The notes beneath the pieces were generated by a model that was not told the DNA's origin, searched no databases, and was given only the letters and a program-made list of their open reading frames with translations. 64,000 nucleotides of DNA, from NCBI GenBank assembly GCA_965213925.1, contig OZ243927.1, positions 608,001 to 672,000 on the forward strand, in the 5' to 3' direction. This document shows positions 20,455 to 36,978 of this stretch, one piece after another; position 1 is the first letter of the stretch; each line of letters starts with the position of its first letter. The translations under genes and the position numbers were made by a program. The stretch comes from Trueperaceae bacterium (lineage in GTDB: Bacteria > Deinococcota > Deinococci > Deinococcales > Trueperaceae).

Positions 20455-20538
20455 GCCGAGGTGGCGGAACCGGTAGACGCGCTAGATTCAGGTTCTAGTC
20501 CTCTTTGGAGGGTGAGAGTTCAAGTCTCTTCCTCGGCA
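20455..20538 (+). tRNA. tRNA-Leu (anticodon CAG), CCA not encoded
   Basis: Acceptor GCCGAGG/CCTCGGC-A; D loop GGTAGAC; anticodon arm CTAGA-TTCAGGT-TCTAG; long variable arm; T loop GTTCAAG. Confidence 0.96.
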
Positions 20539-23505: not shown

Positions 23506-24363
23506 TTAGCTCGAGACCCCCACCACCTCCGACAACCTCTCACCGCTTCGCGTATGCCGAAACCACGACCACGCGGTTCGCGGCGCACGTCCGTCCACGT
23601 TCGGCGCGGCGCGGTTTGCCGTAACGTCGTCCGAGTTGACGGTTCTCGTTTCGACGCTAAAACGGGCCGCGCCGGAGGTATTGGGCACGCTCGCGTGCAG
23701 GTGTGCGCCCGAAAAGGCTAAGAGGTCGCCGGGCTCCAAGAGGATTCTTAGTTCGTTCTCTGCCGTCTCCAAAGGCTCCGGCACGAGCGGCAAGCTCGGC
23801 GGCTCGCCCGCGCGTCTCTCTGCGCGGATGACCTCTAAGTCCCAAATGTCAGTACTGTTCTGAACCGGTTTATCCCAATAGGAGGGAAAAAAGGTGATAG
23901 TGCGCTCCGCCGTAAGCGGGTAAATAGGAGCCCACCAGTTCACAGCCTGATAGACGTTTGAGCCCCAGGTGTCGCGGTGGGCTTTGAGGGCTCTGGGGTT
24001 GTCCCCTGTATAGTCGCTGCCGTGCGGCGACACGCGGAAGAAGAGTTTGTCCCAATAGGTTTGTTCTACGTCAACGCCGACTTGAGCGAGCGCTTCCAAG
24101 AAAGTCTCTCTCGCTCCGGGATGTTTCGCCACTGTTTTTTGTAACGTATCCACTTTACCGCTAAACGTCGCTTCATCAAGGTCGAACTGGGCGGTGGTAG
24201 GCTCGAGCCCGCCAAAGACCTCTTGCGCCAGCTCGTCCACTAGATCACAGAAGTCGTACACCGCCGGAACCGCCTTAAAGATGAGGAGTGCGCCGCCGAA
24301 AAGCTGCTCGCTGAGCGAGCGCTGTGACGTGGCTTTCGTGAGAACTTGCAAAGACGGGGGCAT
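23506..24363 (-). CDS. Putative Fe(II)/2-oxoglutarate dioxygenase-like protein
   Basis: HRD (HxD)...HLHAS...RFSVETR; strong GAGGAGG RBS. Confidence 0.7.
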   Translation of the reverse strand: MPPSLQVLTKATSQRSLSEQLFGGALLIFKAVPAVYDFCDLVDELAQEVFGGLEPTTAQFDLDEATFSGKVDTLQKTVAKHPGARETFLEALAQVGVDVEQTYWDKLFFRVSPHGSDYTGDNPRALKAHRDTWGSNVYQAVNWWAPIYPLTAERTITFFPSYWDKPVQNSTDIWDLEVIRAERRAGEPPSLPLVPEPLETAENELRILLEPGDLLAFSGAHLHASVPNTSGAARFSVETRTVNSDDVTANRAAPNVDGRAPRTAWSWFRHTRSGERLSEVVGVSS

Positions 24364-24465: not shown

Positions 24466-26070
24466 TCAATCGGTTGGCGCGGCTGCCTCCTGCGACGTGT
24501 CGGGCAAGACCTCTTCCCTAAACTCCGTCTGCAAACCTTTATAGAGACTGATACACATGAGCAGGACCACCACGGCGAAGGGCAAACCGAGCGTAATCGC
24601 GGCGGTCTGCAAGGCGGAGAGCCCGCCGCCGATAAGGAGCACCGCCGCCACCGTTCCCTCCGTCACCGCCCAGAAAATCCTCTGGGTGACGGGCGCGTCC
24701 TCTTTGCCGCCAGCCGTGATGCTGTCGATGACCAGTGAGCCCGAGTCCGACGAGGTGATAAAAAAGGTCATGACCAGCAGGATGCCTAAAAGCGAGGCGA
24801 CGCGCCCGAAAGGAAGCTGGTCGAACATGACGAAGAGCGCCGTGGAGATGTCCGCGTTGACCGCCCCGACGATGTCGCCGACGCCGCCCAGCGCCTGAGA
24901 GAGCGCCGTGCCGCCGAAGGCGGAAAACCAGAAGAAGGAGACGATGCTCGGCACGATCAAAACGCCCAGCATAAACTGCTTGACGGTGCGCCCCTTCGAG
25001 ACGCGGGCGATGAACATACCCACGAAAGGCGACCAGGAAATCCACCACGCCCAGTAGAAGACCGTCCAGCTATTCTGCCAACTGCCGCCCTCGTACGCCT
25101 CGCCCCAGGTACTCATAAAGGCTAAGTTCTGCAAGTAGAACCCGACGTTTTGGATGAACCCGTTGAGGATAAAGAGCGTCGGACCCGCGATCACCACGAA
25201 CGCTAAAAGCACCACGGCGATGTTGATATTCAGCTCGCTGAGCCGCCGGACGCCGCCGTCGAGTCCTGCGACAACAGAAAGCGTCGCGATACCCGTGATG
25301 ATGGCGATGAGGATGACCTGCGTCGTGACCGAGTCGGGGATGCCGAAGAGGTAGTTCATCCCCGCGTTGGCTTGCCCGACGCCCAAGCCGAGCGACGTCG
25401 CCAGGCCGAAGAGCGTCGCTAACACCGCCAAGGTGTCGATAACGTCGCCGGGCCAGCTATAGATGCGCTCCCCTAAGAGGGGATAGAAGGCTGAGCGCAC
25501 CGTAAGGGGCAGCCCCCAGTTGTAGGCGAAAAAGGCGAGCGCCAAACCCACGACCGCATAGATCGCCCACGCATGGATGCCCCAGTGAAAAAACGTGACC
25601 GCCGTCGCGACTTGCGCCGCGTCCGGTGTGCCCGCTTCGGCTAGAAAGGGCGGCGTAGAGAAGTGCAAGACGGGCTCCGCCACGCCGTAGAACATGATGC
25701 CGATGCCCATGCCCGCGCTGAAGAGCATGGCGAACCACGCCCACAGGGTGAATTCCGGCTCCGCGTCCTGCCCGCCGATGCGCACCTTTCCGAAGCGGCT
25801 GAACGCCAGAAAGAAGGCGAATAGAACGAAGATATTCGCCGCGATGATGAGCAGCCAGCCGAACTTGTTCGCGATAAAGGCTTGCATGGCGCTGAAGACG
25901 CTCGCCGCTTGATCTTGATAGGCGAGCGTCAAAACGACCATGACGATGATGAGCGCGCTCGAGACGAAAAACACCGGGTTATGTACGTCGAAGCCCGCAA
26001 ACTGAACGTTTCTCGCGCCGATGTCGTGGTCTGCCTCCTTGCCCGTTTTGTTGCCTTCTTTCAGTGCCAT
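24466..26070 (-). CDS. BCCT transporter, BetP-like (glycine betaine type)
   Basis: FSAGMGIG, FHWG and WAWWISWSPFVGMFIARVSKG; AAGGAG RBS supports a start at 26070. Confidence 0.92.
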   Translation of the reverse strand: MALKEGNKTGKEADHDIGARNVQFAGFDVHNPVFFVSSALIIVMVVLTLAYQDQAASVFSAMQAFIANKFGWLLIIAANIFVLFAFFLAFSRFGKVRIGGQDAEPEFTLWAWFAMLFSAGMGIGIMFYGVAEPVLHFSTPPFLAEAGTPDAAQVATAVTFFHWGIHAWAIYAVVGLALAFFAYNWGLPLTVRSAFYPLLGERIYSWPGDVIDTLAVLATLFGLATSLGLGVGQANAGMNYLFGIPDSVTTQVILIAIITGIATLSVVAGLDGGVRRLSELNINIAVVLLAFVVIAGPTLFILNGFIQNVGFYLQNLAFMSTWGEAYEGGSWQNSWTVFYWAWWISWSPFVGMFIARVSKGRTVKQFMLGVLIVPSIVSFFWFSAFGGTALSQALGGVGDIVGAVNADISTALFVMFDQLPFGRVASLLGILLVMTFFITSSDSGSLVIDSITAGGKEDAPVTQRIFWAVTEGTVAAVLLIGGGLSALQTAAITLGLPFAVVVLLMCISLYKGLQTEFREEVLPDTSQEAAAPTD

Positions 26071-26239
26071 AAAGCTCCTTTCGCCACTCCCCCGAACTGT
26101 CAAACGTGGAACCGACCTCTTCATTGCTGATGAACACGTCGCTAAGAGAAAAGACGATAACGCTGTGTGGACGGGCGTACAGAGCAGTATAGCACCAAGG
26201 TGTGGAACGACAAATTTTATAGATAATTAGGGCAGGCAG

Positions 26240-27952
26240 TCAGGATAGACCGACTATTTCTCCCCTCTCATCAATATCGATGCGTTCAGCGGCGGGCGTT
26301 TTGGATAACCCCGGCATGGTGCGCATGTCGCCACACAGGGGGTAGATAAAACCCGCACCTACTGAAGCGCGAACTTCACGCACGGGCATCGTCCAGAGCG
26401 TCGGTGCGCCCTTCAGGGACGGGTCAGAGGAGATGGAGAGGTGCGTTTTGGCGATGCAGACGGGCAGGTGTCCGAAGCCTTGGCGCTCGTAGGTCTCGAG
26501 TTGCCGCGCCGCTTTAAGGTCGTACTCCACGTTCGCCGCGCCGTAGACTTTCGTCGCCACCGCTTCAATTTTCTCGCGCAAGCTCGCCTCGTCGGGGTAG
26601 AGAAACTTAAAGTCGCTCGGTTCGTTCGCCGCCTCGGCAACGGCTTCGGCGAGTTCTGCCGCGCCTTTGCCGCCGTCAGAAAAGTGGTTGGAGACCGCCA
26701 CTTTTGCGCCCATCGCCTCAGCAACTTCGCGGATGGCGGCGTGTTCGCTCGAGTAATCCGTCGGAAAAGCGTTGACGGCAACAACGGGTGAGACGCCGTG
26801 CACGCGGATATTCTCAATCTGTTTGCGCAGGTTCGCCGCACCTGCATGGACGTCGTCCGGGTTTTCCTCCAGCATCCCTGGCGGTAATGCTCTCCCCGCC
26901 ACGACCTTGTAGCGCCCCGAATGTGCCTTGAGCGCCCGCACGGTTGCCACGAGCACGGCGGCGTCCGGCACTAAACCGGAGGTGCGGCACTTGATATTGA
27001 AAAAGCGCTCCGCGCCCATGTCCGCCCCGAAGCCCGCCTCGGTCACGAGAAAGTCGCCCGAGCGGACGCCGATGAGGTCGGCGACCACCGACGAGTTGCC
27101 GTGTGCGATGTTGCCGAAGGGTCCGGCGTGGACCAAAACAGGCGTGTTCTCCACCGTCTGCATGAGGTTGGGCATGAGGGCGTCTTTCATCATCACGGTC
27201 ATCGCGCCCGCCGCCTTGAGGCTTTCGGCGGTGACGGGCTCGCCGTCCATGCTCTGCCCGACGACGATGCGCCCCATGCGCTCACGCATATCCTTGAGAG
27301 AGGTCGAGAGCGCGAGAATCGCCATGACTTCCGACGCGGCGGTGATGTCGAAGCCCGTCTCGCGGATAACGCCGTCCGCGCGGTTGCCCAGCCCCACGAT
27401 GATGTTGCGCAGGGCGCGGTCGTTCACGTCCAGTACGCGTCGCCACGTAATCGAATGACGGTCGAGGTGGAAAAAGTCGTCGTTTTGGTGGACGTGATTA
27501 TCGATCATCGCAGCGAGCAGGTTGTGGGCGCTCGTCACCGCGTGCATGTCACCCGTGAGGTGCAAATTCAGCCGCTCCATCGGCACGACCTGGCTGTAGC
27601 CGCCCCCCGCCGCGCCCCCTTTGATGCCAAAGGTCGGACCCATCGAAGGCTGACGAATCGCCACGGTTGCGCGTTTGCCGATGTGACTGAAGGCTTGACC
27701 TAGTCCGACGGTCGTGGTGGTTTTGCCCTCGCCGAGAGGGGTTGGCGTAATCGCGGAGACGACGACGTATTTGGCTTTAGGTCGGTCTTTAAGTTTCTCG
27801 GTGGCGTCTAGGTGGATTTTGGCGACGTCCTTGCCGTACAGCTCGAGCCACCCCTCCTCGAGCCCCATCCCCGCCGCAATCTCATGAAGCGGTTTGAGCT
27901 TAGCGTTACGGGCAATCTCTAGGTCGCTCGGAAACTTCGTCGATGTTGTCAT
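26240..27952 (-). CDS. fhs: Formate-tetrahydrofolate ligase
   Basis: TPLGEGKTT, GIKGGAAGGGY, HAGPFGNIAHG and EAGFGADMG; ATGA overlap with metF. Confidence 0.95.
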   Translation of the reverse strand: MTTSTKFPSDLEIARNAKLKPLHEIAAGMGLEEGWLELYGKDVAKIHLDATEKLKDRPKAKYVVVSAITPTPLGEGKTTTTVGLGQAFSHIGKRATVAIRQPSMGPTFGIKGGAAGGGYSQVVPMERLNLHLTGDMHAVTSAHNLLAAMIDNHVHQNDDFFHLDRHSITWRRVLDVNDRALRNIIVGLGNRADGVIRETGFDITAASEVMAILALSTSLKDMRERMGRIVVGQSMDGEPVTAESLKAAGAMTVMMKDALMPNLMQTVENTPVLVHAGPFGNIAHGNSSVVADLIGVRSGDFLVTEAGFGADMGAERFFNIKCRTSGLVPDAAVLVATVRALKAHSGRYKVVAGRALPPGMLEENPDDVHAGAANLRKQIENIRVHGVSPVVAVNAFPTDYSSEHAAIREVAEAMGAKVAVSNHFSDGGKGAAELAEAVAEAANEPSDFKFLYPDEASLREKIEAVATKVYGAANVEYDLKAARQLETYERQGFGHLPVCIAKTHLSISSDPSLKGAPTLWTMPVREVRASVGAGFIYPLCGDMRTMPGLSKTPAAERIDIDERGEIVGLS

Positions 27953-28791
27953 GCTTCCCCCAGCCAAGTCTGCCGCCACGCCTCGGTGCGCTCGACGTTG
28001 TTAAAGGTGTAGATGTGAAAACCTGTGATGCCATAAGCGGGATCAGCGAAAGCGCCCTCCAACTCACGCAAGAGGTCGTCCGGTTTATACCCGCTCATCA
28101 GCTTGAAAACCGTGCCCGCGTGCTTGCTGAGGTAGCGCAGCGAGTCGCCCACGCCGATGCGCGACGAAATCTGCATCAGCTTGACCATGTCGATGGCTCC
28201 GGCGACGCCGAGTTGGACAGGCAGGGTGACGCCCAACTGCCTGACCTCTTGCAACCAGGTTTGAATCGTCTTCGCGTCGAAACAGAGCTGCGTTGCCATG
28301 AAGTTGACAAACGCTTGTTTCTCCAAGAGGTCATTTTGCAAAACCTCTTTGGAAATCGAGGGGTGCCCTTCGGGATAAGCGGTGACGCCTAAACGGATGT
28401 CGGTGTCCATCTCGCGGACGGCGCGAATTAGCTCGAGCGAATTTCCGAAGGGTCCCGCTGGCGTTTCGCTGTCGCCGCCGACGACGAAAAGCTCTTGCAC
28501 GCCCATGTTACGAACGCGGTTGAGGATGGACTCTAAAGGTGCATGTCCTTCAACCAACCGCGCCGAGAGGTGCGGCGTAATCTGCGCGGCAGGGATGGTC
28601 TTTGCAAGCTGCTCCGTTAGCTCGAGCGTCGCCTCTATCCCCTTCGTAGGCGACACGGTGATGCTTACGCTCGCCCCCTTTGGAATAGAGGTGAACGTCT
28701 TCTCCACCCCTTTCATCGGGATGAGTTCGTATTTGGGGTGCCGCAAAAGTGCCGCCGCGCCTGCGCGACTCGGTGTGTTTAAGGTGTCCAC
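27949..28791 (-). CDS. metF: Methylenetetrahydrofolate reductase
   Basis: PHLSAR, VGGD, AYPEGHP, TQLCFD and HIYTFN. Confidence 0.88.
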   Translation of the reverse strand: MDTLNTPSRAGAAALLRHPKYELIPMKGVEKTFTSIPKGASVSITVSPTKGIEATLELTEQLAKTIPAAQITPHLSARLVEGHAPLESILNRVRNMGVQELFVVGGDSETPAGPFGNSLELIRAVREMDTDIRLGVTAYPEGHPSISKEVLQNDLLEKQAFVNFMATQLCFDAKTIQTWLQEVRQLGVTLPVQLGVAGAIDMVKLMQISSRIGVGDSLRYLSKHAGTVFKLMSGYKPDDLLRELEGAFADPAYGITGFHIYTFNNVERTEAWRQTWLGEA

Positions 28792-28810
28792 AGATACCTC
28801 ACGCCTTTAA

Positions 28811-28838
28811 GTAGGGGCGATTCATGGATCGCCCCTAC
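28811..28838. repeat. GTAG-type REP palindrome
   Basis: GTAGGGGCGATTCATGGATCGCCCCTAC, one mismatch to the copy at 4671. Confidence 0.9.
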
Positions 28839-28870
28839 GTTAGCGCTGCTCGACATTGAATTCACTGACC

Positions 28871-30166
28871 CTAGAGCTTCTTGCCCATCGTGCGTAAGCC
28901 CGTACCGGCGTCATAGGGCTTCTTGAAGGGCGTCTCTGCCACCTCTGCCCAGACGGGCTCTTCGGCGTAGCGATCCTCGAGCTTCACCTCGAGCTTCGTC
29001 CCGACTTCCGTTAAGCCCACGGGCAGCATCGCGTAACCGATGTTGCACCCCTGCGTCGGCGAATAGAACCCCGAGGTGATGTAACCGACGACTTCACCGT
29101 CCTGGTAGACGTGATAGAAGTCCGCCGGATACCACTCGATAGGCTCCCCGCCCATGCGCACGCCCGCGAGCTTGTGCGTCACGCCTTCCTCTTTAATCTT
29201 GGCGAGCGCCTCTTTGCCGATAAAGTTCTCTTTCGAGAGGTCCACCTGCCAGTTCAGCCCACACTGGTAGGGGTTCGTCTCCACGTCCATGTCCTGACCC
29301 CAAGAGAGGATGCCCGCTTCGATGCGGCGGATGTGTCCGGGAGCGATCACGCGGAGGTTGAATTCTTCGCCCGCCTCGAGCACGGCGTTCCACATCTTCT
29401 CCGCGTTTAGAGTCGCGTCGTGAAGGTAAATCTCGTAGCCTGCTTCCGCCGAGAAGCCCGAGCGCGAAATCGTCACATCGCAGCCGCCGACTTGGACGTT
29501 TTGCATCAAACCGTAGTACGGCACGTCGTCGATGCCTTCGCCGACGAGCGCTTTCATAAGCGCGGGCGCTTTCGGTCCCTGAATCTGCACGGGGCACACG
29601 TCAATTTCGTTGACCTCAACATCGTAGTCCGTCACGGCGGCGACGCCCTGCAAGTAAATCCCGATGTCCGAATCCGCTAATGAGAACCAGAACTCGTCCT
29701 CGGCGGGGCGCAGCAAGACGGGGTCGTTCAAGATGCCGCCGTACTGGTTGCAGAGGATGACGTAGCGGGCCTTGCCCGGCTGAATCTTGTCCACCGAGCG
29801 CGTGATGACCAAATCCGTAAACTTCGCCGCGTCGGGTCCCTTAACTTGAATCTGCCGCTCCACCGCGACGTTCCACATGGTCACGTCCTCGGTCAGCGAC
29901 TTGTACTCCGTCATCAGACCGCCCTCATCTAAAGGGACGTACGCCCGAGGGTGATACACGCGGTTGTAGACCGTAAAGCACCAGCAGCCCGCCGCTTGCG
30001 AGAGGTGGTGATAGGGCGACTTGCGCACGCGCTGCGAGAGGAGCATCTTCGCGTCGAAGTCGCCGCTGTTGCGCAGATTGACGGGCACGTGGCGCTTGCC
30101 TTTAAGCGCGGTGATTTCGTTCGAGGAGACGGGCGCGGATTCGGTGGTGGTTCTGTCTTTAATCAT
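28871..30166 (-). CDS. GcvT-family aminomethyltransferase, DmdA-like
   Basis: RVRKSPY..TVYN, WNVAVERQIQVKGPDA, GGILNDPVL, WFSLADSD, SRSGFSAEAGYEI and RRIEAG. Confidence 0.85.
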   Translation of the reverse strand: MIKDRTTTESAPVSSNEITALKGKRHVPVNLRNSGDFDAKMLLSQRVRKSPYHHLSQAAGCWCFTVYNRVYHPRAYVPLDEGGLMTEYKSLTEDVTMWNVAVERQIQVKGPDAAKFTDLVITRSVDKIQPGKARYVILCNQYGGILNDPVLLRPAEDEFWFSLADSDIGIYLQGVAAVTDYDVEVNEIDVCPVQIQGPKAPALMKALVGEGIDDVPYYGLMQNVQVGGCDVTISRSGFSAEAGYEIYLHDATLNAEKMWNAVLEAGEEFNLRVIAPGHIRRIEAGILSWGQDMDVETNPYQCGLNWQVDLSKENFIGKEALAKIKEEGVTHKLAGVRMGGEPIEWYPADFYHVYQDGEVVGYITSGFYSPTQGCNIGYAMLPVGLTEVGTKLEVKLEDRYAEEPVWAEVAETPFKKPYDAGTGLRTMGKKL

Positions 30167-30418
30167 GTAACTGACCTCTTAATGAATGGATTGGGTAGGG
30201 AAAGGCGGTTGTGTAGGATTAAACGTGTGGTTTGCTAGCCTCACCTCCCTTAAAGTGCCGTTCACCGCTGAGCCGAAAAAGAGACAAGACGTTGCGTCTC
30301 TGGAAAGGGTTTGTTAGAAGAGTTTGCGAAGCGGTGCTCGACCTCTCGAGACTCGAGCACCAAAGTCCTAAATCAAGAGGTCGAACAAAGAAGACAAAGT
30401 CGGTGACTACCGCGTGCG

Positions 30419-32914
30419 TCACGCCGTCACCGCGACATCGCTTTCTAGGTTGCTTTTTGCCTCTTCCACGCTCTTCGCCCGCATCCGTTTCATCTCGGGG
30501 TCGAAGAGCGGCTCCGCTTGCACGGTGGCTGAGAAGCGTTCGCCGAAGTATTCAATCTGCAAAGAGGTTCCTTCTTTGGCAAGCTGCGGTGGCAACCAAG
30601 CGTAAGCAATACCTCTTCCAACCGTGTAGCCATATGCCGCGCTCGTCACGTAGCCAATCGCTTCATCTCCGCCATAAACGGGCTCACTGCCCATCACAAC
30701 TTTAGAAGCGTCATCCAGCGTGAGACAGGTTAAAACTTGACGCGGACCCTCTTCTTTTCGCTCGAGCAAAGCCTCTTTGCCGATAAAGTCCTCTTTATCC
30801 ATCTTCACGGCGAAGCCTAAACCTGCCTCGAAGGGGTCGTGCTCGGTGTGCATGTCTTTGCCCCACGAGCGGTAGCCTTTCTCGAGCCTCAACCCGTCAA
30901 ACGCCCCGCGTCCACCCGCGATGATGCCGTACGCTTGCCCCGCCTCCCACAAGAGGTTCCAGAGGCGGTAGCCGTACTCGTAAGAGGTGTAGAGTTCGTA
31001 GCCCAACTCGCCAACGTAAGAAAGCCGCAAGGCGCGTACCGGAACCTCACGGATAAAAACCTCTTTCGCCTTGAAAAACCCGTGACCTTCGTGCGAGAAG
31101 TCGCTTTCGGAGAGGGACTGCATCACATCTCTCGCATACGGTCCCCAAATGCCGATACAGCAGAGCTTGGAGGTTGCGTCCTCCACGTGAACTTCGCCCA
31201 TCTGCGCGGCGTGCTCTTGCAAGTGCGTAACGTCCATCCCGCTGTTAATGCCGAGCTGGTAGAGGTTTTTGTCCAGTCGCGCCACCGTCACGTCGCTTTT
31301 AACGCCGCCCGCTTCGTCCAGCACGAGCGTATACGTCACGTTGCCGACGCGCATGTTCATCTTGCCCGTGGTGAGCTTGTTCAGTAACGCTGTTGCGTTT
31401 TTGCCGCTCACCTCGACCTTTTTCAAAGAGGTCATGTCAAAGAGGGCGACGCGCTCCCTGGTCGTTCTATGCTCTGCTCCAACGATGGGCGACCAAAATT
31501 TGGCGGACCAGTTGTCGCGCTTAGGAACGAAGCTTGAATCTAACCTCTTATTCACTTCAAACCACTGCGGACGCTCCCAGCCGGAGGACTCGAGGAAAAA
31601 CGCCCCCAATTCCTTCTGCTGACCATAAAAAGGCGATACCCGAAGCGGTCGCGGCTCCTCCACCGGTTGCAGCGGATGGATGATGTCGTAAACTTCGATA
31701 AAGTTCTGCGAGCCGCGCTGACGGATATAAGAGGGGCTCTTGCCGTGCGCCTCGAAGCGGTCGATGTGGTGTTCGCGCAAACCAATCGGAGACTTACCCG
31801 TCATGATCCACTCCGCCACGCACTCGCCCGCGCCGCCCGCGTGCGTGACCCAGACCGCCTCGGCTGCCCAGAACCCTTTGACCTTGGAAGACTCGCCGAA
31901 GACGCTCATGCCGTCTTGGGTGAAGGAGAAGAGCCCGTTCATGCCCCAATCGATTTCAGCCTGCTCGAGCGGTGGCAAGAGGTCTTTCGCATCATTCCAA
32001 GGACCTTCGAAATCTTCAGGCGTAAAGGGGTTCACCGAAGGCATGACCGGGGCTTGGCTTAAAGACTGAATATTCTCAGCGGCAACAGGCATGGCGCGGT
32101 GCTGGTACGAGCCGACACCGTAGGTGTCGTAAAACTGCTTGAAATACATGCTGCTGTCTTGGTGGCGCAAAATGGGCTGGGCGGTCTCGTCGTCCTTGAA
32201 GTGGCTCAGCGCTTCGAGCGGTTTGGTGTACGCCATCTGGTGCTCTAAGGGCTGTAGCGGCAGCGTAAGCCCCACCATCTTGCCGATCTTCGGTCCCCAG
32301 ATGCCCGCGCAGCAGACGACAACATCAGCCTCGAAGCGTCCTTTGCTCGTGACGACAGCTTGCACGCGCCCGTCACTGACCTCTATATCTAAAACTTCTG
32401 CGTTTCCGTGAAAGACCGCGCCACGCTCTTGCGCTTTTTGTCCCAACGCTGCGCCGATGCGCACCGCCTTGCCAATGCCATCGCTCGGAACGAAATAGCC
32501 GCCGTAAATTTTCCCTTGGTCGAGTTGCGGAATCATTTCGGCGCATTCTTCGGGCGAGAGAAGTTTTGCGCCCTCTAACCCATACGACGCGGCGAAGCCT
32601 AGCTTTCTTTTAAGTTCTTGTAAGCGTTCGGGTGTATACGCCACCTCGACGCTGCCGGTCTCGATGTAGCACGGTCCGTCCTCATGCGTCAGCGAGCTGT
32701 ACTTTTCCACCGAGCGCATCGCCAGTTTCGTCATCGAGCGCGAGCTGTTGGTTTGAAACATCAGCCCGGGCGCGTGCGAGCTGCTGCCGCCCGTTTCGAA
32801 GAGCGGACCCTTCTCGGTAACCGTAACATCGGTTGCGCCGAGCTTCATTAGGTGTTCCGTAAGCACACAGCCCACGATACCTGCGCCGATAACGACGATC
32901 TTCCCCCGACTCAT
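30419..32914 (-). CDS. Dimethylglycine oxidase/dehydrogenase (FAD domain plus GcvT domain)
   Basis: GAGIVG, GGSSSHAPG (covalent-FAD His), LEHQ, RHQD..MY, SYVGELGYEL and LRLEKGYR. Confidence 0.88.
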   Translation of the reverse strand: MSRGKIVVIGAGIVGCVLTEHLMKLGATDVTVTEKGPLFETGGSSSHAPGLMFQTNSSRSMTKLAMRSVEKYSSLTHEDGPCYIETGSVEVAYTPERLQELKRKLGFAASYGLEGAKLLSPEECAEMIPQLDQGKIYGGYFVPSDGIGKAVRIGAALGQKAQERGAVFHGNAEVLDIEVSDGRVQAVVTSKGRFEADVVVCCAGIWGPKIGKMVGLTLPLQPLEHQMAYTKPLEALSHFKDDETAQPILRHQDSSMYFKQFYDTYGVGSYQHRAMPVAAENIQSLSQAPVMPSVNPFTPEDFEGPWNDAKDLLPPLEQAEIDWGMNGLFSFTQDGMSVFGESSKVKGFWAAEAVWVTHAGGAGECVAEWIMTGKSPIGLREHHIDRFEAHGKSPSYIRQRGSQNFIEVYDIIHPLQPVEEPRPLRVSPFYGQQKELGAFFLESSGWERPQWFEVNKRLDSSFVPKRDNWSAKFWSPIVGAEHRTTRERVALFDMTSLKKVEVSGKNATALLNKLTTGKMNMRVGNVTYTLVLDEAGGVKSDVTVARLDKNLYQLGINSGMDVTHLQEHAAQMGEVHVEDATSKLCCIGIWGPYARDVMQSLSESDFSHEGHGFFKAKEVFIREVPVRALRLSYVGELGYELYTSYEYGYRLWNLLWEAGQAYGIIAGGRGAFDGLRLEKGYRSWGKDMHTEHDPFEAGLGFAVKMDKEDFIGKEALLERKEEGPRQVLTCLTLDDASKVVMGSEPVYGGDEAIGYVTSAAYGYTVGRGIAYAWLPPQLAKEGTSLQIEYFGERFSATVQAEPLFDPEMKRMRAKSVEEAKSNLESDVAVTA

Positions 32915-33010
32915 GCTCTGCTCGTAACCGTCTGACCCATGCTTGCGCTCCTAACTACGGTACTCACACCTAATGTACAACTGGTTTACATTCAACAGAA
33001 CGCTCGAGGT

Positions 33011-33031
33011 TTGTTGCAAATAAAACAACAA
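33011..33031. promoter_or_regulatory. Palindromic operator candidate upstream of the DMG operon
   Basis: TTGTTG-N9-CAACAA, with a further GCGCAACAAC half site at about 33043. Confidence 0.45.
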
Positions 33032-33320
33032 GAGGATAAATGGCGCAACAACGAGTTGGATAATTGTACATAGTGAGTAGAGTGAGGTCAAGAAGGAGCG
33101 AGCCTATCGGAGCCAAATCCGCCGAGCTTGAGCGCCTCAGCCTTCTGTAGCGCAGCCACCCTAAGTGCGACACGTCAGAAAGTCTGCTTTAGGACGCTCG
33201 CAGCGACTATTCCCGCAGAAACACTGTGTCACAACTGTTCCCTACAACATTACAAACGTGATTTTTGTTACAGTAAACTCGAGCTTGACGTGAACTACAA
33301 CTCCATCTTTGGGGGCTTTT

Positions 33321-34166
33321 ATGAAGTGGGAAAATAGAGGCAGAAGTCGCAATTTAGAGAACCGTCGGAGCGGCAAAAGTGTAGGTATTCCTCTCGGCAT
33401 CGGCGGAACGCTAGTCTTGCTCGTGCTCAGCTTGCTCTTAGGCGTAGACCTCTTCAGCGTGTTGGGGATCACCTCGCCGCAAGCAGGCATGTCGAGCCGT
33501 CCTCCTTTGGAATCCAACCCCGCCGAGGAGGAACTCACCGACTTCATGTCGTTCTTGATTGACGACACCCAAGAGGTGTGGAGCGCTATGTTCGAGGAGA
33601 GCGGGATCACCTATAGAGAGGCGACGCTCGTCCTCTTCCGTGACAGGGTGGAGTCGGCATGTGGGGTTGCGCCCTCGTCGGTCGGACCGTTTTACTGCCC
33701 GCTCGACAGCACTATCTACCTCGACTTCGCCTTCTATGACACCTTGCGTGGACGTTACGGCGCACCGGGCGACTTCGCGCAGGCGTACGTGGTAGCGCAC
33801 GAGGTCGGGCACCACATCCAAAACCTGCTCGGCACGGCGTCCGAGGTGCGTCAAGCGCAGCAGGCGCGTCCGGGTGAAGCGAACGCACTCTCCGTCGCTT
33901 TAGAACTCCAAGCGGACTGCTACGCAGGCATCTACGGCGCGAGCGCACAGGCGCGCGGGCTTTTAGAGCGCGGTGACTTGGAGGAAGGGCTCCGCGCGGC
34001 GGCGGCCGTGGGCGACGACCGTCTGCAGCGTCAAAGGGTGGGGCGCGTCAACACCGAGACCTTCACGCACGGCAGCTCGGAGCAGCGCATGAGCTAGTTT
34101 GCTCGCGGCTTCGAGACGGGCGACCCGAACGCCTGCAACACCTTCAGTCGTGCGTCACTGCCCTAG
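33321..34166 (+). pseudogene. Neutral zinc metallopeptidase (YpfJ-like) with an in-frame TAG at a conserved Trp
   Basis: GPFYCP, HEVGHH and ELQADC; HGSSEQRMS*(TAG 34095)FARGFETGDPNACNTF continues the family C-terminus. Confidence 0.8.
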
Positions 34167-34265
34167 GTGTTTTCCGGTGTGGATAGCTCCGAGGTTTACA
34201 AGAAGCGTTTAATAGCAGTTTCACTTATCCTTGCTTGAGTGCAACTATGCAAAGTAACGCTTCTC

Positions 34266-34430
34266 CGCAGATTTCACAGCTTTGCTGTAACGGAACATCA
34301 CTTAAAGTGCGTGTTAGACGACGATCTTTCTAGTGAGAGTATAACTGACCAGATGAAAGTGCAGTCGCGTGGCGCGCAGTCGCGAAGCTCCCACTGGCCC
34401 GCTAGCTGCTTTAGCGGGTATACCTGCTAT
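34266..34430. repeat. Family B element, degenerate (B5)
   Basis: CGCAGATTTCA..AACGGAAC..GTGCGTG..AGTGAGAGTAT..CCAGATGA..ACCTGCTAT, matching 54919+ and 60825+. Confidence 0.6.
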
Positions 34431-36568: not shown

Positions 36569-36680
36569 AGTACTGCGCCCTACTTATGGTGTTCGAGCCT
36601 CTTACGGGTAGGCGCTGGGCGAAGGCCTATAGCCAAAAGGCACTATCAAGTTCGTAAAACTTAGTTGACGGTGTACTGAC

Positions 36681-36868
36681 TCCAGCGTCAAGTAAAAAAT
36701 GAGTCATGTCATTCTGAGCGGAGCGCCAGCCCTACGGTAAACCATAGGATAGACTCCGAGAAAGAATCCCTGACCTTGCTGACTCCTCTGACAGAGAACG
36801 AAAGACGAGACCCTTCACGCCTTCGGCTCAGGGTGACAACAATGGCGCAGAATTTACTTAACGGTGTA
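36681..36868. mobile_element. Family A MITE-like element (A2), preceded by an orphan TIR at 36661-36675
   Basis: TGTCATTCTGAGC...GCTCAGGGTGACA core, near reverse complement of 41455-41620; 36661-36682 is identical to 8862-8883. Confidence 0.8.
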
Positions 36869-36978
36869 GTAAGTTAGAATCTTTGTATTGGCTCGAGCAT
36901 GAAAGTATGTTCTGAACGCTTCTCTCTAAATACCGCGATTTTTAGTACAATAGGGTATCTTGTAGTTAAGGAGCGTTC

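Follow-up and report, generated by a model that had tools for sequence, protein, structure and literature searches.

How might a cell strip glycine betaine of its first methyl group with no need of vitamin B12, oxygen or homocysteine? The question is raised by a run of five co-oriented genes in a Trueperaceae bacterium (Deinococcota; assembly GCA_965213925.1, contig OZ243927.1). The run lies within a stretch of 64,000 nucleotides, referred to here as the window (G000:C1:608001-672000, corresponding to window positions 1-64,000; coordinates given as C1 are those of the whole contig). The genes occupy the minus strand of positions 24466-32914 and, according to the list of open reading frames (ORFs) and to Pfam and NCBIfam matches, encode a dimethylglycine (DMG) oxidase, a GcvT-fold protein (P0001), a MetF-like protein (P0002), the formate-tetrahydrofolate ligase Fhs and a BCCT transporter. 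An earlier note on this DNA had drawn the cluster with exactly these members and limits, and had proposed that it demethylates betaine or dimethylsulfoniopropionate (DMSP) independently of vitamin B12.

The best explanation of the block is that it is an acquired module for betaine breakdown, the first step of which would need neither vitamin B12 nor O2 nor homocysteine. In the proposed pathway, P0001 would move one methyl group of glycine betaine to N5 of tetrahydrofolate (THF), yielding DMG and 5-methyl-THF, as DmdA does with DMSP, and the S6MTHFR-like MetF would then oxidize 5-methyl-THF to 5,10-methylene-THF. FolD (encoded elsewhere) and Fhs would take the one-carbon unit to formate, with a gain of ATP. 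The DMG oxidase would turn DMG into sarcosine and methylene-THF, a step predicted from strong homology, and one of two SolA/MSOX-like oxidases encoded elsewhere might take sarcosine to glycine, a weak assignment. For the first reaction (betaine + THF -> DMG + 5-methyl-THF, by a new and widespread sister family of DmdA), the balance of the sequence evidence is modestly favorable. The betaine demethylation proposed in the earlier note is supported in this way by phylogeny, the MetF partner, the neighbors of the gene and its distribution in haloarchaea.

The DmdA-like family and its MetF partner

The best NCBIfam match of P0001 is to the DmdA model NF009133, at 315.9 bits, below the equivalog cut-off of 410 and below the 537-692 bits reached by DmdA proteins of Rhodobacteraceae. 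P0001 also fails the cut-offs for GcvT (TIGR00528, 167 vs 235.85; NF001567, 195.9 vs 300). Its best solved relative is DmdA of P. ubique (3TFH, 216 bits), and LigM matches at 41 bits, with a structural template modelling (TM) score of 0.6. An AlphaFold prediction from 33 sequences (pLDDT 87.3, pTM 0.86) gives a three-domain fold of the GcvT type with a THF site, matching 3TFH best in the PDB (TM 0.93, root-mean-square deviation 2.1 Å) and GcvT structures at TM 0.89-0.90. The motifs described earlier as DmdA-type (FTVYN, WNVAVERQIQVKGPDA, LNDPV and SLADSD) are present in the translation, and are common to P. ubique DmdA in the alignment.

With one genome scanned per species, 111 relatives were found, and the best 80 of them were kept as loci; identity within the family is 48-74% over these 80. 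The carriers include halophilic Bacillota, Alpha- and Gammaproteobacteria (among them SAR86, Halomonas and Enterovibrio), Actinomycetota, a metagenome-assembled genome (MAG) of Myxococcota and many Haloarchaea, and the homologues bear generic names only, such as ‘aminomethyltransferase family’. To sample true DmdA, the NF009133 profile was searched against 41 genomes from the Tranquillimonas family, 14 of which have a match over the cut-off. P0001 is 32-35% identical to true DmdA (Rhodobacteraceae) and about 40% identical to a third DmdA-like group, intermediate between the two, which scores 357-381 bits on NF009133, also below the cut-off. This intermediate group (L085, L086) was seen in genomes of the family Rhodobacteraceae and in Halomonas salinarum, where it is sometimes co-resident with true DmdA or with the P0001 family. 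A tree of 46 rows, with three GcvT sequences serving as the root (a quick search, with long outgroup branches flagged by the program), recovers the P0001 family (31 rows) as one clade (SH-aLRT 89) and DmdA (10 rows) as a separate clade with a support of 100, which groups with the two intermediate rows at 94. The P0001 family and DmdA share 59 positions invariant in both, and a further 26 are fixed to different residues. Matches in 301 sampled genomes of Alphaproteobacteria have a bimodal distribution, with 13 genomes at 54% identity or more and the remainder at 45% or less. Score, identity, tree, fixed positions and bimodality together indicate that P0001 belongs to a distinct, widespread orthologous family that is sister to DmdA, and that it is not itself DmdA; in the phylogeny against DmdA and GcvT suggested in the earlier note, it stands outside the DmdA clade, in a clade of its own. 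Around the gene for the closest relative (L042, 74% identity) lie phage-integrase, Mutator-transposase and rve-integrase genes (L042:6805-12380), which fits gene mobility.

The gene for P0002 lies 79 nt downstream of that for P0001. P0002 matches PF02219 at 54 bits and TIGR00676 at 66 bits (cut-off 294). Its best match in the PDB is 7XG9, the S6MTHFR of Sphingobium lignivorans, at 108.6 bits (E 3.6e-30), whereas ordinary MTHFRs match at 38 bits or less (next best 1V93, 37.8 bits). According to Yu et al. (2025; PMC11868366), S6MTHFR oxidizes 5-methyl-THF, shows hardly any reactivity with NADH and represents a ‘type 4’ of MTHFR coupled to the THF-dependent demethylases LigM, DesA, CmuAB and Dmt. 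A second, canonical MetF is encoded elsewhere in the genome, directly upstream of a 1260-residue open frame that contains the only S-methyl_trans domain of the genome and a B12-binding domain, and that is read here as MetH. The resemblance of P0002 to S6MTHFR suggests that it works as a 5-methyl-THF oxidase and, by the same token, that the product of the P0001 family is methyl-THF, which is what DmdA is described as giving, whereas GcvT gives methylene-THF (PMC5395565). The earlier note had drawn a methyl-THF product from the adjacent metF; that argument is strengthened by the far greater closeness of P0002 to a 5-methyl-THF-oxidizing enzyme and by the canonical MetF kept elsewhere. At the position of the β8-α11 loop of S6MTHFR, the MetF-like partners fall into two types. 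Y-T-F-N is found in the window, Natribacillus (Bacillota), Haloarchaea and Actinomycetota, and the S6-like Y-P-F-G in Gammaproteobacteria. In the Y-T-F-N type, the electron acceptor or the reactivity with NAD(P)H may be different.

Gene neighborhoods and phyletic patterns

Neighbors were counted over the 80 loci by tblastn with proteins of the window and of the other loci. A MetF-like gene is present in 37 loci (within 1.1 kb in 36 of them), all outside the SAR86-type group (n = 21, assigned by title and identity), that is, in 37 of the other 59. Full-length DMGDH/DMGO-like proteins and OYE/DgcA-like flavoproteins are each found in 17/80 loci, the latter mostly SAR86-type, followed by Fhs (12), FolD (11), a BetI-type repressor (8), BCCT (6), SHMT (4) and an AraC/DJ-1 (GbdR-like) regulator (3). 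In control flanks of 1.5 kb, a MetF-like gene was found in 0/14 true-DmdA loci and in neither of the two intermediate-group loci.

In eight gammaproteobacterial loci (L014-L021), a BetI-type TetR repressor and a MetF-like domain are encoded in one ORF of about 410-530 residues, directly upstream of the DmdA-like gene (e.g. L019:8410-9927). Pfam scans of selected loci show further partners. The Natribacillus halophilus locus contains OpuAC, TetR, a DgcA-like flavoprotein, a MetF-like protein, SHMT and a PALP enzyme. In L049, from a gammaproteobacterial MAG, an AraC/DJ-1 GbdR-like regulator is combined with a MetF-like protein, Fhs and DMGDH, and Inquilinaceae L023 has soxG-soxA-soxD, AraC/DJ-1 and DMGDH. 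In Arthrobacter sp. H14, the order is PurU, SHMT, FolD, the family gene, Fhs, FTCD_C, IclR and DMGO. Among haloarchaea, Halohasta litorea has a MetF-like gene and two DMGDH paralogues, and Natronococcus has Usp, BCCT, MetF-like and FolD genes. In Enterovibrio, MetF-like and Fhs genes are followed by an M19 dipeptidase and DUF5943, both of which also belong to the Pseudomonas dgc cluster. The recurrent neighbors (DMG dehydrogenase or oxidase, SoxBDAG, Fhs, FolD, SHMT, BCCT or OpuAC, and BetI- or GbdR-like regulators) point to betaine. Co-occurrence across genomes, proposed earlier as a check, extends in distant lineages to genes for DMG and sarcosine oxidation, one-carbon folate metabolism and betaine uptake or regulation.

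The distribution of the family relative to known betaine demethylases was followed in 20 carrier genomes. No GbcA-like gene was found in 13 of them, and a GbcA-like gene below the cut-off was found in three, the source genome included. Five of the 20 (Arthrobacter sp. H14, Halohasta, Salinigranum, Natronococcus and Halorientalis) are without GbcA-like, MttB and S-methyl_trans genes alike.

The haloarchaea give the strongest support for betaine as the probable substrate. Among 121 genomes of the class of Halohasta, the family is present in 25 and FAO_M (DMGDH-type) genes in 32: 25 genomes have both, none has the family only, seven have DMGDH only and 89 have neither, these genomes being related, such that the two-by-two table is not a statistical test. 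The two genes are often 5-25 kb apart on one contig. S-methyl_trans was found in 0/121 of these genomes, as was GbcA over its cut-off. It follows, when MttB is also considered, that 18 of the 25 carriers have DMG-oxidizing genes and none of the known enzymes converting betaine to DMG. DMGO-like genes near BCCTs have been described in haloarchaea, the enzyme of the first step being left unnamed there (Anderson et al., 2011; PMC3102087). A weak Rieske match lies beside the DMGDH genes in two of the seven DMGDH-only genomes. In one locus (G086; L109, G086:C2:311000-330500), the order is two Rieske alpha-subunit genes, a 365-residue gene, DMGDH-1, FolD, DMGDH-2 and PALP; identity to Halohasta is 35% for the 365-residue gene, 78% for DMGDH-1 and 74% for DMGDH-2, and the Rieske pair takes the position that belongs in Halohasta to the DmdA-like and MetF-like genes. 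This looks like a non-orthologous displacement of the same step. In another haloarchaeon (G130, L110), a stretch of about 30 kb contains an MttB gene together with DMGDH, Fhs and the family gene.

The source genome and the weighing of alternatives

The family was found in none of 30 relatives of the source organism, of which two are from its genus, 16 from its family and 12 from its order. In a congener (G479), the BCCT gene has a counterpart of 93% DNA identity that directly follows the prs-tRNA region, and the four genes upstream are absent. Window positions 26113-34201 (Fhs, MetF-like, DmdA-like, DMGO and a Zn-peptidase gene) have no DNA match in two congeners, whereas the BCCT and prs-tRNA region at their flank is matched. 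The four catabolic genes are thus a horizontally acquired insertion beside a resident BCCT gene (Table 1). On one side, the insertion is bounded by a dispersed intergenic repeat of about 150 nt (window 34200-34360), with 34 matches in the genome, its own place included, and many in the two congeners; a second element, at about 36656-36877, was seen only as repeated matches in congeners.

Table 1. Features of the locus, in window coordinates
Feature	Position	Strand	Remarks
Dimethylglycine oxidase (flavoprotein of the DMGO type that contains a THF-binding GcvT domain), 831 aa	30419..32914	-	First gene of block
DmdA-like GcvT-fold protein P0001 (GCV_T + GCV_T_C), 431 aa	28871..30166	-	Proposed glycine betaine:THF methyltransferase
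Divergent MetF P0002, S6MTHFR-like, 280 aa	27949..28791	-	Proposed 5-methyl-THF oxidase
Formate-tetrahydrofolate ligase Fhs	26240..27979	-	Last gene of acquired block; PF01268 840 bits
BCCT transporter, nearest to glycine betaine uptake BCCTs	24466..26124	-	Resident gene adjoining insertion; PF02028 652 bits
PhyH-like Fe(II)/2-oxoglutarate dioxygenase-like protein	23506..24363	-	Possibly associated; PF05721 20.4 bits, below cut-off
Candidate promoter-like site upstream of DMG oxidase gene	33063..33091	-	TTGACC-17-TACAAT, 10/12 matches

The downstream steps of the pathway also appear to be available in this genome. The DMG oxidase has the full architecture of four Pfam domains (DAO, FAO_M, GCV_T and GCV_T_C) and matches the DMG oxidase of Arthrobacter globiformis (1PJ5) at 905 bits over residues 3-812; its predicted conversion of DMG to sarcosine and methylene-THF is well supported. 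Fhs exceeds the cut-off of NF010030 (817.6 vs 652 bits). The BCCT has the GMGIG and WWISW motifs reported earlier and passes the subfamily model TIGR00842 (519 vs 407.55), although it remains below the cut-off of the betaine_BCCT equivalog NF047988 (587.9 vs 650). FolD and sarcosine oxidase had been said to lie outside the window: FolD is at C1:328829, and two SolA/MSOX-like oxidases are at about 377 kb (499 bits) and 1379 kb. A scan of the genome for GCV_T found four such proteins, one of which is the DMGO and another, at C1:1135150, a separate and stronger match (288.6 bits).

The earlier note had also stated that the cluster is without GcvH/GcvP, BHMT, Rieske and corrinoid genes, as is the case over the 11 ORFs scanned around it. 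MttB (PF06253) had no match in the source genome, which is 96.9% complete, a stand-alone BHMT was not found in it, and its B12-binding domains were found only in the frame read as MetH and in a 179-residue ORF. Elsewhere in the genome, however, a Rieske oxygenase resembling GbcA and Stc2 is encoded at C1:1378313-1379512, so that the absence of a competing betaine demethylase holds for the cluster and less clearly for the genome. It scores 370.5 bits on GbcA NF058607, below the cut-off of 670, 302 bits against the stachydrine demethylase 3VCA (Stc2) and 311 bits against 3N0Q. Its gene adjoins that of a SolA/MSOX-like oxidase and a divergent LysR regulator (G000:C1:1378277-1381810; L001:6278-9810), and no reductase gene was found beside it among 10 ORFs scanned. 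The Rieske/SolA-like pair could serve the N-demethylation of betaine or proline betaine.

A further uncharacterized member of the module may be the PhyH-like protein encoded downstream of the BCCT gene, the atlas clusters of which are named ‘Fe2OG dioxygenase’ or hypothetical. Its homologues directly adjoin the DmdA-like gene in two other loci, a Thiomicrospira MAG (L011:11356-12198, 33% identity) and an alphaproteobacterial genome (L118:400-1257, 42% identity). Promoter-like sites in the scan are not above chance (three found, 3.0 expected) and neither are terminator-like sites (11 found, 13.1 expected), and the only RNA found in a scan for riboswitches and other RNAs is a tRNA at 20455-20538. 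Among listed sequencing runs, none of RNA covers the stretch, and a single one of DNA type covers most of it.

Several observations weigh against betaine or against the proposed roles of the two proteins. Betaine is suggested as the substrate by the neighbors only, and these are not always present: an adjacent MetF is found in 0/21 SAR86-type and 1/13 alphaproteobacterial loci, no tested neighbor in 21/80 loci (several of them on short contigs) and none of the usual partners in L042, while L013 and L009 have amidase and transporter genes rather than betaine partners. The BCCT of the window does stand next to the cluster, as described earlier, but being a resident gene outside the acquired block it is weak evidence for the substrate, and a BCCT is also found in one of the 14 true-DmdA loci. 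Known routes coexist with the family. True GbcA is encoded in four of the 20 carrier genomes (Halomonas, Onishia and two Enterovibrio) and MttB in two, and in haloarchaea MttB is found in seven of the 121 genomes, all seven carriers of the family; such frequent coexistence implies that the family could serve another substrate. In the source genome, the GbcA/Stc2-like Rieske oxygenase might do the first step instead. P0002, for its part, keeps only two of the five type-4 signature residues (Pro49 and Phe269), with Leu48 replaced by Ser, Arg78 by Leu and Pro268 by Thr, as mapped through the alignment with 7XG9, and its membership of type 4 is thus incomplete; the same pattern was found in haloarchaeal, actinobacterial and Natribacillus partners, in a multiple alignment from which S6MTHFR itself is absent. 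Finally, in general chemistry a sulfonium donates a methyl group more readily than a quaternary ammonium does, and the known direct betaine methyltransferases use a Zn-thiolate or Co(I).

The most probable alternative is the same chemistry on another onium substrate, such as DMSP, proline betaine, choline, carnitine, trigonelline or a sulfonium or arsenic analogue, which we consider unlikely but deserving of attention. The nearest characterized relative of P0001 and its best structural match are one and the same DMSP demethylase, many carriers are marine (SAR86, gammaproteobacterial MAGs), and a BCCT also lies beside true DmdA (one of 14 loci). The coexistence with GbcA (4/20) and with MttB (2/20, and 7/25 of the haloarchaeal carriers) would fit a division of labor between substrates, and BetI-type regulators classically respond to choline. 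Against this, the genes that recur beside the family outline a route along a glycine skeleton, with oxidases or dehydrogenases of DMG and sarcosine, SoxBDAG, SHMT and PALP proteins of the serine/threonine dehydratase type, and P0001 itself is under the DmdA equivalog cut-off and outside the DmdA clade. The set of acyl-CoA ligase, acyl-CoA dehydrogenase and enoyl-CoA hydratase genes for the catabolism of methylmercaptopropionate (MMPA) was not noticed in the Pfam scans of neighbors, dmdBCD not having been specifically searched. The carriers include soil Actinomycetota and hypersaline Haloarchaea, in which DMSP would not be expected. The earlier note had left DMSP open beside betaine; the gene context favors betaine and makes DMSP unlikely.

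In a less probable alternative, which we regard as improbable, P0001 would not be a methyltransferase but a stand-alone, T-protein-like THF module, catching iminium or formaldehyde set free by an amine oxidase that acts with it and has no folate domain (MSOX/SolA-like or OYE/DgcA-like). In that case its product would be 5,10-methylene-THF, similarly improbable, which the MetF-like enzyme would then reduce. The fold is nearly as close to GcvT as to DmdA (TM 0.89-0.90 and 0.93), the SAR86-type loci, which have no MetF, often have an Oxidored_FMN gene 0.4-2.4 kb upstream, DgcA-like genes are found in 17/80 loci, mostly SAR86, and roles of this kind have been postulated for SAR11 aminomethyltransferases beside monomeric sarcosine oxidase (Sun et al., 2011; PMC3160333). 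Yet the clade is sister to DmdA and not to GcvT, and the commonest partner resembles the 5-methyl-THF oxidase S6MTHFR rather than a biosynthetic MetF, a canonical MetF being already present beside the frame read as MetH. Moreover, the adjacent DMG oxidase and the DMGDH and SoxA partners elsewhere have THF domains of their own.

Very improbable is the last alternative, that P0001 demethylates DMG or sarcosine to THF while betaine is handled by the GbcA/Stc2-like oxygenase: the source genome does have this Rieske gene with a SolA-like oxidase under a LysR regulator, and only one DMGDH-type gene, but two DMGDH paralogues (Halohasta, L062 and G086-type loci) or DMGDH with SoxBDAG (L023) already cover the second and third demethylations elsewhere, 13/20 carrier genomes are without a GbcA-like gene, and methyl transfer from a non-quaternary amine is less favorable. 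Transfer of a betaine methyl group to THF by P0001 is the reading retained here.

Comparison with known routes of demethylation

As late as 2025, the way in which betaine loses its first methyl group was described as elusive (Mausz et al., 2025; PMC12478193), and the betaine demethylases listed in a preprint of December 2025 are MtgE/Bhmt, GbcAB and MtgBCD (bioRxiv 10.64898/2025.12.19.695462). A full-text literature search, with subscription journals and supplements outside its range, found no paper assigning betaine to a GcvT-fold THF methyltransferase. Whether the P0001 clade constitutes a fourth widespread route for the first step, passing a betaine methyl group directly to THF with a dedicated methyl-THF oxidase, is a question on which we would place even weight on either answer. 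If it does, it would supply the first step that is missing from Haloarchaea, many Actinomycetota, halophilic Bacillota, SAR86 and small-genome marine Alphaproteobacteria, and would explain the use of betaine without BHMT/MtgE, GbcAB or MtgBCD in 18 of the 25 carrier haloarchaea and in Arthrobacter sp. H14. Betaine catabolism would be freed from cobalt or B12 and from oxygen, in a compact module moving between lineages, as it did into the source genome, and gene-based estimates of betaine consumers in oceans and salt lakes would change.

Of the established systems, the Rieske-type glycine betaine monooxygenase GbcAB/BmoAB would do the same step, from betaine to DMG, with an unrelated fold; it needs O2 and a reductase, and releases formaldehyde rather than methyl-THF. 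The cobalamin-dependent MtgBCD of Ruegeria pomeroyi is closer in logic, as it is described together with an induced MetF2 that would oxidize methyl-THF (Mausz et al., 2025; PMC12478193). The conversion proposed there is the same one, from betaine to DMG with the methyl group passed to THF and then oxidized by a dedicated MetF paralogue. The source genome has no MttB-family protein, however, and a single GcvT-fold protein would replace the three proteins of the corrinoid system.

A DmdA-like, gcvT-like aminomethyltransferase of SAR11 (SAR11_1265) adjoins metF (SAR11_1264), the product of which was proposed to oxidize methyl-THF, an arrangement like that of the P0001 family. Its substrate is unassigned in that work, in which taking off DMSP's second methyl group, and not a betaine methyl group, is the speculation offered (Sun et al., 2011; PMC3160333). 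SAR11_1265 is likened to the P0001 family by its description, its membership of that clade being unconfirmed. A family member of 57% identity with an adjacent MetF-like gene is found in a single-contig alphaproteobacterial genome of 1.4 Mb (G209).

The ligM-metF-ligH operon of Sphingobium lignivorans SYK-6, as described by Yu et al. (2025; PMC11868366), follows the same logic of a THF-dependent demethylase from the GcvT superfamily, a MetF oxidizing 5-methyl-THF and Fhs. The demethylase of the window is only remotely LigM-like, and its proposed substrate is a quaternary amine and not an aryl methyl ether; similarly, the window MetF departs from type-4 MTHFR in its signature residues, while the gammaproteobacterial partners keep the YPFG loop. 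DmdA itself (NF009133; 3TFH) has the same GcvT-type fold, the shared motif set and common invariant positions, and presumably the same chemistry as P0001, a redox-neutral transfer of a methyl group to N5 of THF. P0001 differs from it in about 40 extra residues at the N terminus and about 30 at the C terminus, in the link to MetF seen in its family and in none of the 14 true-DmdA loci, and in a gene context of betaine, DMG and sarcosine, that of DmdA being DMSP.

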